Shown here: piece by piece, positions 6,001 to 9,000 of the stretch | How positions within the stretch are numbered: the first letter of the stretch is position 1 | Layout of the letters: each line of letters starts with the position of its first letter | IMG/VR virus record: IMGVR_UViG_2537562192_000014 | Span: 1 to 25,514 of that record | Reading direction: 5' to 3' (one strand) | DNA length: 25,514 nucleotides | DNA from: a virus | Lineage: Duplodnaviria; Heunggongvirae; Uroviricota; Caudoviricetes | Made by a program: the position numbers

Positions 6001-9000
6001 CAACATCTTATAGTAAATTGTTAATATAACAAGGTATTGTATCAAATGAGCCAAAATCTTGATTCAACACTAGAAACATACATCTCTTGGCAGTTAGAGC
6101 AATTTAAGGATAAATTTTTCCCAAACTGTGACGTCATTGCGTACTACGGTGGCATCTTTCCATGGTCAAAAGAAGTTTACCAGCCAAAACTTGAAGCTAT
6201 TGGTGAGATGGCTAACAGTCGTACCAATAAATTTCTTGTTATTATACTCAATACAAACGGTGGTTCTGTTGAGTCTGTAGAAAAAATGGTAGAAATTACA
6301 AGGCATTTCTACCAAGAGGTATATTTTATCATTCCAGACATGGCTATGTCGGCAGGTACAATATGGTGCATGTCTGGAGATAAAATTTACATGGACTATG
6401 CTTCTTCATTAGGACCTATTGATCCTCAAGTGCAATCGTCGGACGGTAAATGGGTTCCCGCTTTGGGATACCTTGATAAAGTTGAAGAAATGATTAATAA
6501 ATCCAGAGAAGGAACCATTACCCAAGCTGAACTGATGATGCTTAGTCAGTTAGATCTGGCGCACTTGCGGAGATATGAGCAAGCCAGAGAACTATCAATA
6601 GACTTGCTTAAGAAATGGCTTGTGGAGTATAAATTTAGAGAGTGGACAGTTCATCAAGGTAACACAAAACGAGGAAAGCTAGTTACCAAGAGGGAAAAGG
6701 AAGCGAGGGCTAAAATGATCGCTACCGCTCTTAGTGACAACGGAAAGTGGCATTCTCACGGAAGAACGATAGGAATAAACACTCTTATCAATGACTTAAG
6801 GATAAAAGTAGAAGACTTTACATACGATAAAGATTTTAGCATGGCGTTAAAAAATATACATAACGTCATTAATGAATACATGTATAAAACAAATCGACAG
6901 GTTCTTGTTCTGTCTTCTTTCCCTTTTCCAGAACAAAGTGAGTCATAAATGAACAAAGACAAATCCCTGACACAACAAGTGGAAGAAATACTTAGCAAGC
7001 AAAAAGTTAGCGAGCAAGGAAAAATGATTCAATCATTAAAGAACAGGGGCTTGATCAACAAGCCTGTTTTTACTTTGGCTTATGGACCAGATATTACAAC
7101 CTGCCAAATGCACCAATAACAAAACCCGGCCTTGGTGCCGGGTTTTGTTTGCCTCCTGCTCGCCCCACCATTTACCAGTGCGCCGTAAATTCCCCATTCT
7201 TCGTGGCGGTGAGGATGTCAAAGACGAAGGGAACATTAAGCCCCTGTGTGATGGTTGACTTCTTTTTCCAGCGCCTTATTAACAAAGGCGTTCAGTGATA
7301 AATCTTCTTCCATCGCCATTTCTGCTACCCGACGATGCAGTTCTGGATCAAGCCTGACGTTAAACACACCTTTAAACGGGGTATCAGGCTCCTTTCCATC
7401 CTCCACACAAGACTGTAAATACAGCTCAACCGATGTCTTAAACTCCTGTTCCAGTTCAGCTAATGTAGAAGCCTCATAAGTTACCAGGTCTCGAATAAAC
7501 GCCAGTTTTCCGTACAGGATATTATTTTCAAAATCTGGTTCTACTGTACCTAAATATCCTTTATATTTTAGATGCTTCATAATACCCCAGCCTCTTTCAG
7601 ATTCTGTTTAATCGCTTTCAGCGTTCCACCTTTAATATAACTTTCTGGATGTGGGCGATGCATTAATATGGTGTGGTTGATTTCAGCATTGAAAAACCGC
7701 ACTCTTGAGCCCTGCATTTCCTTTTTGACATATCCCAGAGAGGAAAACAAAACGACCAGCTCATCCCATTCAAACGTTTTTTTACTGTTTAAAAACTTTT
7801 CCAGTAGCTTATCTGCTTTCCCCATACCCACATAATCTCATCTTCGCTACATTGCAACTAATTATAGTTACAGGCAGTGTTTTTGTCAAAAGCCACCAAG
7901 CCCGCTGGGTTCTCTTTGACTGTTCGCTGCTTTTCTTGGTGTTATCAGGGGGCTTTTCCCTCACGCCAAATCTCACATAGAGTAACCGGCCTCCGCGTCG
8001 GTTTTTCTTTGACCGCACTCCGCTAACCGCCCCCTTGAAAAATAAATCACTTTAAAAATCAGTTAAGTAATATTTTTTCACCCCCAATAACCACTAACGG
8101 TATTTACATGAAAATCACCGCAAGTTATATTTATTTCAAGCTAGAAACATCGCGCCCTTACACAGGGCTACATAAATCAGTCGTACGGCGCGACTTAACC
8201 CGCCGCAAAATGCTCTTTAACAATCTGGAGCTTTACAGCGTCAATGACCTGTTTAGACCCCTACACGTAAACGTGCTGTATCATCGGGTGCGATCCGGTC
8301 GATGAGAGAGTATCCCCGCGCGAGAGCGAGAACGGCGTGAGAACGGGCAACACTGGCAGGAAGTTGGCGCTGACCAATACAGGGAATGTTTTGGGGTGCA
8401 GGCGGCACCGCCAAAGCATTTCCGAGAAAGGACGGTATTGACTGCGTGTGATGTCGGGGCTATATTTGGCGAACACCTTATAAAACGGGTGTCGGGATTC
8501 TCACCCCGCTGACAATCGAGGCGATACAGACGCGCCAGCGTCTTTTTTTGTATCAACATACACGCACATCTTATCAATGGTGGGCTGTATGGGGCCGACT
8601 TCGGTCGGGCTGGTTCCCTTGATTGCCAGTTGTGAGAACCCTGTACAGTCCACCGCCAGCGAGCTTCTCACCTCCAGCGGTGGTTATCAATCACCAATCA
8701 AGGAGGCTGCCATCATGGCTACTATCTCTCCCCTTTCTCGCCCATCCGTAACTATTGAAAACGGCAATGCCATCACTACGTCAATTGACATCGCAGAGTT
8801 CTTTGAGAAGCAACATCACCATGTTGTTCAGAAAATAGAATCCCTCGAATGCTCTGAGCAATTCTTAACCCGCAACTTTTCGCGGGTTAAATTTGAACAC
8901 CGAGGCAATACCTATAACGCCTATCAAATCACCAAAAACGGATTCGTCTTCCTGGTGATGGGATTCACTGGTAAAAAAGCCGCTGCATTCAAGGAAGCCT

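Follow-up and report, generated by a model that had tools for sequence, protein, structure and literature searches.

Within the 25,514-nucleotide stretch of the Caudoviricetes record IMGVR_UViG_2537562192_000014 that has been analysed here, and that is called the window throughout, the interval between the hicBA genes and a Rha-family gene (7832 to 8714) comprises two separate regulatory modules, which are stacked in the leader of an early-left operon at 8086 to 8366 and at 8438 to 8714. The first module contains, at 8208 to 8366, what alignment and covariation identify as a new element, a conserved, covarying and uncatalogued RNA with a boxA as its 5' end, and the second is a predicted module of the type known from immI of phage P1 and from isrK-anrP of Gifsy-1. 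Taken together, the arrangement is probably best read as a nut-like leader that works without N, in which boxA and host Nus factors would carry transcription from the promoter pL through the IsrK terminator and past Rho, with an IsrK/C4 switch lying downstream. The features listed in an earlier, purely sequence-based reading of this interval (the original prediction) are all present, though split between the two modules; what that reading missed are a second promoter at 8438 to 8466, the identities of IsrK and C4, and the role of boxA as the 5' end of a larger RNA.

A conserved, structured RNA that begins at boxA

The boxA TGCTCTTTAACAA (8211 to 8223, + strand) is the sole exact match in the window and aligns with the bases annotated as 'nutL boxA' in phi80, so that the perfect rrn-type boxA claimed in the original prediction has been confirmed as a single site with zero mismatches. 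Its bases 8212 to 8222, GCTCTTTAACA, fit GYTCTTTAANA, the functional boxA consensus that has been derived experimentally (PMC5725501). Homology to related loci has been found to start exactly at boxA. With 7990 to 8470 as the query, the segment 8211 to 8398 has shown ~94% identity to phi80, HK225 and a Klebsiella phage and a weaker similarity to the Edwardsiella phage Edno5, and a more permissive search with 8195 to 8440 has added APSE-1, a phage of the aphid symbiont Hamiltonella, at a marginal E-value. In phi80 the bases matching the element have been annotated as 'nutL boxA' and 'nutL core', a putative nutL downstream of pL and its operators. The same location 3' of pL has been seen in every annotated relative examined (phi80, HK225, the Oslovirus-type Shiga-toxin (Stx) phages, the Klebsiella phage KO-TP1 and Edno5), and the first gene after the element is a different one in each of them. 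Clustering of the downstream open reading frames (ORFs) has likewise given no common first gene, and a conserved partner protein beside the element has been rejected; the only recurring genes are Kil-like and other early-left genes ~1 kb further on, and the distance from the element to the next gene ranges from 19 to >450 nt.

A scan of IMG/VR with the pattern TTTAACAA-N55-85-GCGATCCGG has returned 120 loci, ~95 of them true relatives. When the window and the annotated phage loci are added to these, the set (IMG/VR and GenBank) comprises 61 distinct sequences, which clustering at 93% identity sorts into 12 groups. Among complete E. coli genomes the element occurs in 224 of 5,426, phi80-derived laboratory strains included, and an annotated feature lies under it in none of the 12 E. 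coli records listed. A further scan has been made independent of boxA by anchoring it on the 3' half of the element only (GCGATCCGG...GAAHGGGMA), and it has recovered 8 additional full-length members, all 8 of which possess a boxA with at most two changes. As boxA has thus been kept where the search did not demand it, it is regarded as an integral, conserved part of the element, and the concern attached to the original prediction, that the match might be absent from related phages, has not materialized. A contig scan with a 17-base gapped pattern has yielded only chance matches among the matches listed, and a re-test of 46 loci (L210 to L249 and six proteobacterial ones including Brenneria L189) with the covariance model described below has given no score for any of the 46 and no host-range information. 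As a separate observation, the 21 bases 8209 to 8229 (boxA and the next 8, TGCTCTTTAACAATCTGGA) recur without a difference at a site of many T7-like phages (Kayfunavirus and relatives).

The RNA itself, ~159 nt on the + strand (8208 to 8366), has been delineated by alignments (A1, A3 and A4), by covariation and by the covariance model R1. The structure tested comprises six helices: the closing stem P0 (8210-8213/8356-8359), P1 (8235-8238/8249-8252), P2 (8264-8267/8272-8275), P3 (8276-8290/8296-8310), whose loop holds the invariant GCGAUCCGG, P4a (8316-8318/8333-8335) and P4b (8319-8321/8326-8328). In the MAFFT alignment, 93.9% of the pair cells are paired, as compared with 31-46% when the partners are slid, changes on both sides occur at 15 pairs (2-9 with slid partners), and the observed covariation score has been reached by 0 of 500 shuffles. 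The model-aligned set (n = 69), which leans towards the structure because it has been fitted to the covariance model, shows 94.3% paired cells and compensatory changes at 19 of 30 pairs, as compared with 3-7 for slid partners. Around the invariant GCGAUCCGG loop, for example, CAUCGG/UCGAUG of the window corresponds to CACCGG/UCGGUG in phi80 and to CGCCAA/UUGGCG in APSE-1. Conservation in the alignment extends from boxA through ...GGGCAACACUGGCAG, and the invariant loops and junctions have been identified as GCGAUCCGG, GACCCC and GAACGGGCAACACUGGCAG. R1 scores 184 bits at 8208 to 8366 and at most 11 bits in the rest of the window, and it finds one copy of the element per related locus. The comparison of covariance and structure among related prophages that had been proposed along with the original prediction has led to a conserved, covarying RNA starting at boxA. 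An Rfam search of 8100 to 8480 at E <= 10 has given no match to this RNA, and no description of the extended element has been met in the literature searched.

The pL promoter, its operators and the leader hairpins

Upstream of the element, a consensus scan has located pL, TTTACA-17-TATATT (8103 to 8131, + strand), where its placing with respect to the homologous boxA equals that of the pL annotated in phi80, with a transcription start predicted at ~8138. The promoter spacer holds the operator OL1, AATCACCGCAAGTTATA (8113 to 8129), which agrees at 12 of 13 specified positions with the OR site TATCACCTTTGGTTATA of the cro/cI intergenic region (4874 to 4890), ATCACC-N4-GTTATA being common to both. 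For the weaker operator-like site that abuts the -35 hexamer (8086 to 8102), that is by eye identical to the same OR site at 10 of 17 positions and that holds a perfect TGGTTAT half-site, we infer a putative second operator, OL2. The repressor gene at 4895 to 5608 appears as 'LexA family protein' in RefSeq, and we take it, from a comparison by eye with the lambda cI sequence, to be a close cI homologue. The sharing of operator sites supports control of pL by the repressor, and the pL promoter with a lambda OR3-like operator in its spacer, as originally claimed, has been borne out by its position at the place expected for pL and by the operators that it shares with the cro/cI region.

The leader contains two hairpins (both + strand), GCCCU-UACAC-AGGGC (8154 to 8168), which is present in the minimum-free-energy and centroid folds, and AGUCG-UACGGCG-CGACU (8179 to 8195), which lies 15 nt 5' of boxA. 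The former is situated at about +17 of the pL transcript and 5' of boxA, which is the order of rrn leaders; its stem is that of lambda boxB, with a differing pentaloop (UACAC). In leaders of the phi80 type a hairpin has likewise been seen by eye immediately 5' of boxA. A 65-aa ORF (8108 to 8305) spans boxA, as had been noted earlier, and it does not start upstream of the promoter, as had also been stated, since its start at 8108 falls inside it.

IsrK, C4 and the Rha-family gene

The second module begins with a predicted promoter of its own, TTGACT-17-TATATT (8438 to 8466, + strand; consensus scan), the -10 hexamer of which ends 6 nt before the match to the small RNA (sRNA) IsrK. The latter covers 8473 to 8548 (+ strand; Rfam RF01394, scoring 58.7 bits where the gathering threshold is 50, and covering positions 1-77 of the 77 in the model) and carries an intrinsic terminator at 8528 to 8550 (+ strand), consisting of a stem at 8528 to 8543 and a T-run. 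It is followed by a C4-type antisense RNA at 8573 to 8660 (+ strand; RF01695, scoring 77.1 bits where the gathering threshold is 45, and covering positions 1-87 of the 87 in the model). The canonical terminator that the original prediction had placed before the first pL-side gene is thus real and is that of IsrK; the hairpin CCGAC-UUCG-GUCGG, expected at ~8592 to 8606, exists a few bases away (8595 to 8608) and is the inner hairpin of C4. Hence the GC-rich hairpins and the terminator, which had been considered as an antitermination device, turn out to be IsrK, under its own promoter, and C4, both above their gathering scores. The claim that transcripts from pL have to get past an intrinsic terminator on their way to the first gene, with no N encoded in cis, has held.

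Two segments that are unpaired in the C4 fold, the loop CCUUGAUUG (8617 to 8625) and the junction GUGAGAA (8632 to 8638), face complementary target sites downstream on the same strand: b2, UUCUCAC (8665 to 8671), shows perfect 7-nt complementarity to the junction, and a2, CAAUCAAGG (8695 to 8703), perfect 9-nt complementarity to the loop. Site a2 overlaps the Shine-Dalgarno (SD) sequence AAGGAGG (8700 to 8706) of the ATG at 8715. IsrK contains a further set of sites complementary to C4, b1, UUCUCAC (8498 to 8504), and a1, CAAUCGAGG (8513 to 8521, with one G-U pair), both on the + strand, and from these complementarities we infer that IsrK would serve, wholly or in part, as a C4 decoy. As IsrK and C4 have already been annotated in the public Stx-phage record LC710660, this half of the interval is not new.

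The first gene of the pL operon (8715 to 9359, + strand) belongs to the Rha family and is preceded by a strong SD sequence 8 nt before its ATG. It matches phrog_995, phrog_518 (Rha-like), phrog_1760, 373 and 63 (anti-repressor) with E-values of 1e-100 to 1e-17, and an antirepressor role is predicted from these families. RefSeq starts the gene at the equivalent of 8589, inside C4, and LC710660 starts it at the equivalent of 8715 (215 aa). The strong SD sequence, the 215-aa annotation in LC710660 and the presence of only the 215-aa ORF in several relatives point to 8715 as the true start, and the RefSeq start codon is a probable error. The open frame over C4 (8577 to 8714, + strand, with ATGs at 8577 and 8589) is in frame with the Rha gene and matches orf45 of Gifsy-1 in position, and its coding remains uncertain because several relatives have only the 215-aa ORF. 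The PHROG profiles also include the N-terminal extension of Rha, and the early start may be widely propagated.

A second module of the same logic (IsrK, C4 and antirepressor) has been observed at 17126 to 17400. There, a promoter-like site (17126 to 17155) is followed by CUUCAAAG (17170 to 17177) and by a terminator-like hairpin with a T-run (~17185 to 17212), and a match to sRNA-Xcc1 (RF02221, 17247 to 17336) has a loop, CUUUGAAG, complementary to a further copy of CUUCAAAG at 17362 to 17369, which overlaps the SD sequence before the ATG at 17379. The protein starting at this ATG and the Rha-like protein have the motif MNINYPLSWFSEHHP in common.

The prophage setting and the search for N

From its relationships, the window is assigned to a Shiga-toxin prophage of the Oslovirus type (TL-2011c/P13374-like) without N. 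The 883-base interval 7832 to 8714 occurs with 100% identity in the chromosome of E. coli 2015C-3121, which has stxA1a a few kb past the position that matches the left end of the window, and 7986 to 8714 shows 88-96% identity to Stx phages of the Oslovirus type, among them TL-2011c, P13374, Ss-VASD and many Stx2a phages. Along the + strand, the cI-type repressor gene (4895 to 5608) is followed by a Clp-fold protease, by hicBA on the opposite strand, by the interval studied and then by genes of the Rha family, Kil, GamL, RecT and an exonuclease; leftward, cro, a helicase/primase replication module and nin genes have been found. By this gene order, the interval occupies the position of pL, nutL and N in lambda. 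The toxin-antitoxin pair hicBA (7236 to 7889, minus strand), with a promoter at 7889 to 7861 that fits the consensus at 12 of 12 positions, has been inserted between the immunity region and pL, and the similarity to other Oslovirus-type Stx phages picks up again at ~7986, at a terminator-like hairpin (7984 to 8003).

The original prediction had found no N-like ORF and had called for a search of the rest of the prophage, and this search has remained without a candidate over 25.5 kb covering both early operons, a scope in which short divergent N-like proteins can escape homology searches. An N homologue has not been found in the window by tblastn with lambda N, phi80 'N' gp45, HK225 gp40 or an N-like arginine-rich (Arg-rich) peptide of relatives; no ORF of the pL operon has emerged as a credible candidate from a scan for Arg-rich N-termini, and the small early ORFs, when compared with PHROG, have fallen only into Kil, Cro-type, antirepressor/Rha or unknown families and not into an N family. 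Rejected as N have been the 65-aa ORF at 8108 to 8305, which has no PHROG match, and the small ORFs at 8337 to 8512; each of them begins before the start of the transcript or shares bases with the RNA elements. On the other side of the immunity region, the first ORF after cro (4272 to 4541, minus strand, 89-97 aa, phrog_852 of unknown function) has an internal Arg-rich stretch, RKGNRARRSANTRLR, and has been dismissed as an obvious N analogue because this stretch is not N-terminal.

In phi80 the N label looks positional. The product concerned, gp45 (L003, 2853 to 3149, 'early transcription antiterminator protein N'), has been rejected as a true N, as it shows no Arg-rich motif and belongs to phrog_25091 of unknown function; in phi80, moreover, no nutR has been annotated and cro is not followed by a boxA. 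Four divergent members of the family (L020, L069, L252 and L279) encode, ~70 nt after the element, a 51-aa N-like Arg-rich peptide (5527 to 5679 in L069) starting MNSKQKRRAWRHERRQNERE, which is a classic N-type arginine-rich motif, and a pR-side boxA with a hairpin has been found in L069 (7260) and L252 (8264), the two that have enough flank there. This ORF and the pR-side sites tie the family to nut biology. A homologue of the peptide has not been found by tblastn in the window, phi80 or HK225, none of which has a pR-side boxA. The P2-P4 domain has been kept in members with and without an N-like gene, and the nutR-like sites of the sub-clade that encodes N lack it.

Proposed mechanism

According to the reading preferred here, a repressor of the cI type would govern pL, and after its inactivation the transcript would begin at ~8138. 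Its boxA would recruit the host factors NusB and NusE and with them NusA, NusG and SuhB, and the structured domain may stabilise or extend the resulting Nus complex. RNA polymerase (RNAP) started at pL would then resist Rho over ~580 nt of untranslated leader and in the operon beyond, with no need for a phage N, and would perhaps, at least in part, pass the IsrK terminator. C4-mediated translational repression causes Rho-dependent polarity in P1, and the modified RNAP would be expected to resist polarity of this origin as well. The separate promoter would make IsrK, ending at the terminator, and its read-through transcripts would yield C4, so that both RNAs would be supplied in the lysogen. 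C4 would pair with b2 and a2 over the ribosome-binding site (RBS) of the Rha/antirepressor gene and silence it, and IsrK, by its b1 and a1 copies, could titrate C4 and turn the gene on, in line with the trans-activation of anrP in Gifsy-1. Because boxA is present only on transcripts initiated at pL, induction would bring about termination-resistant transcription of the whole operon, and transcripts from the IsrK promoter would stay terminable. Nus loading, antitermination and the decoy role of IsrK are all proposed from the nucleotide sequence. The prediction of intrinsic terminators has given no strong one on the + strand directly after the element in the window, and no other strong one on this strand between 9000 and 17000; in phi80, the annotated terminators tL1A and tL1B lie downstream of the element. 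Among the options of the original prediction, an RNA-based or host-factor-dependent boxA mechanism fits a conserved structured RNA that starts at boxA. A bolder version, in which 8208 to 8366 would be a self-sufficient processive antitermination RNA that needs no phage protein, loads Nus factors at boxA and contacts RNAP or a Nus factor through its domain, is considered possible but doubtful.

Several observations weigh against antitermination by boxA and Nus factors without N. Complexes of the rrn-boxA type act well against Rho-dependent termination and poorly against intrinsic terminators, and owing to this weakness any read-through of the IsrK terminator may owe nothing to boxA. The first bases of boxA would be paired in helix P0, which could compete with the binding of NusB/NusE, and the single-sequence fold has been found no more stable than shuffles (z = -0.55). 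On the pR side, R1 has detected no second copy of the element in the window, in phi80 or in the other loci searched, nor is there a boxA with up to two mismatches in the window or phi80. Since the element occurs only at pL, and the nutR-like sites lack P2-P4, this domain may act in a pL-specific way other than antitermination. An N-like protein, finally, may be too short or too divergent for a homology search, or may be provided in trans by a co-resident prophage.

Alternative explanations

The pL-specificity of the element would be readily understood if P1 to P4 formed some other pL-specific RNA device, such as a leader that senses a ligand or a protein (a riboswitch-like attenuator), an element for RNase processing or stability or the precursor of an sRNA that acts in trans, with boxA merely keeping Rho off. 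The invariant loops and junctions (GCGAUCCGG, GACCCC, GAACGGGCAACACUGGCAG), which are typical of binding pockets or tertiary contacts, and the lack of a P2-P4 domain in the nutR-like sites of N-encoding relatives agree with such a device. However, neither a terminator nor an RBS is consistently sequestered, the next gene varies in distance (19 to >450 nt) and identity, the element of the window is not immediately followed by a terminator, and no riboswitch, ribozyme or sRNA of Rfam has matched it, and we consider this explanation unlikely. In yet another explanation the element is an orphan nut site, the N of which has been replaced by the isrK-C4-antirepressor cassette, and which would be inert or would need a compatible N-like protein in trans, for instance from another prophage of the same E. 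coli strain that makes Shiga toxin (STEC). Such an origin would account for the end of the phi80 homology at ~8398, before the phi80 gene annotated N, for the Arg-rich N-like ORF directly after the element in the divergent sub-clade and for the mosaic first gene, but the element has been preserved at 94-100% identity, with compensatory changes, in many N-less phages with differing downstream genes, among them the deposited Stx-converting phage genomes TL-2011c, P13374 and Ss-VASD. Moreover, the phi80 'N' is free of an Arg-rich motif and belongs to a PHROG of unknown function, and 19 covarying pairs are not expected of an inert relic, which makes an orphan site improbable.

Least of all do we expect, and grant only a very slight chance to, the explanation closest to the original prediction, according to which the hairpins at 8470 to 8660 and the terminator form a put-like antitermination structure, or define a ~400-nt terminated non-coding RNA (ncRNA) made from pL. 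Transcripts from pL that stop at 8549 would indeed measure ~410 nt, contain boxA, the structured domain and IsrK, and could exist after induction. Yet the hairpins and the terminator match IsrK and C4 above their gathering scores, a promoter lies 6 nt before IsrK, and the targets of the C4 antisense segments sit on the RBS of Rha; a ~77-nt IsrK from the promoter at 8438 to 8466 is thus the more likely product. The put elements of HK022 measure ~70 nt, fold into two stem-loops, have no boxA and occur in two copies, at pL and at pR (PMC9378689). A further mark of the put class is binding to the zinc-binding domain of the RNAP beta' subunit without other factors, with suppression of intrinsic and Rho terminators. 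Homology to them has been rejected, as putL and putR are not alike by eye and R1 has no match in the HK022 immunity region (L005), and a put-like element is disfavoured by sequence, size, copy number and architecture.

Implications

The part of the interval that was already known acquires a new context, as in Stx phages, which are of medical importance, an immI-type antisense switch is placed directly under pL, and a simple decoy mechanism is suggested for IsrK. The leader RNA is found also in the classic phage phi80 and in phages of Klebsiella, Edwardsiella and Hamiltonella (APSE). If N-independent, Nus-dependent antitermination holds true, it would explain how the early-left operon is expressed in N-less phages, and antitermination at this site would provide a compact natural part for terminator-proof expression. 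Should the RNA be a self-sufficient antiterminator, it would join put and EAR as a third class of such RNAs, and it would account for early-left expression in lambdoid phages without N, to which phi80 and the Stx phages of the Oslovirus type belong, for instance P13374 of the O104:H4 outbreak. For the function of the leader RNA, phi80 offers a direct test system.

Comparison with known systems

The isrK gene of Gifsy-1 is transcribed from a promoter of its own, part of the transcripts continue past the IsrK terminator, the short IsrK activates the translation of anrP in trans, and the AUGs of orf45 lie 107 and about 120 from the IsrK start (PMC4825925). The Gifsy-1 authors explain the activation by alternative mRNA structures (PMC4825925), and the decoy for C4 is the proposal made here. 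The window resembles the isrK-orf45(STnc1160)-anrP locus in having an IsrK match, a promoter-like site, a Rho-independent terminator, a structured RNA and an antirepressor-like gene in the same order, and also a short ORF that overlaps the structured RNA and whose two AUGs are at about equal distance from the IsrK start. It differs in that the locus lies downstream of antQ in Gifsy-1 and directly after pL and boxA in the Stx prophage, where the orf45-like frame runs on, in frame, into the Rha gene.

The immI region of P1/P7, the order of which is upstream sites a1/b1, c4, target sites a2/b2 and ant, is matched by the C4 fold, by its two unpaired segments complementary to sites in the RBS region of an antirepressor operon and by the second, upstream copy of these sites. 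Its arrangement of c4 antisense RNA, icd and ant is said to have been described by Citron and Schuster in 1990. Here, in contrast, the upstream copies reside in a terminated sRNA (IsrK), icd is missing, and the module belongs to a lambdoid-style pL operon and not to a P1 plasmid prophage.

With lambda nutL the element shares its location directly after pL, the presence of boxA and a hairpin, P1, at the place of boxB. Unlike lambda, the window has neither N nor nutR, its boxA matches the rrn consensus and not the weaker lambda version, the first hairpin 3' of boxA (P1, 8235 to 8252) has a 10-nt loop in place of a GNRA-like pentaloop, and the extra conserved P2-P4 domain of ~110 nt has no counterpart in lambda. 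The protection of untranslated RNA from Rho by boxA-type sites at CRISPR arrays is reportedly the subject of a further paper. N-independent protection of this kind, mediated by boxA, has been reported for rRNA operons and CRISPR arrays (PMC4807359). The rrn leader, CRISPR and suhB boxA sites are alike to the present one in the consensus boxA, in the hairpin before it (as rrn boxB), in the long untranslated transcript and in the dispensability of a phage protein; different here are the repressor-controlled phage promoter, the extra structured domain and the intrinsic terminator in the path of transcription. HK022 put, which acts in cis as an RNA and belongs to the early leader of a lambdoid phage lacking N, fills an equal logical niche, in which the element of the window, with its 159 nt, 6 helices, leading boxA and single copy, represents a different architecture.

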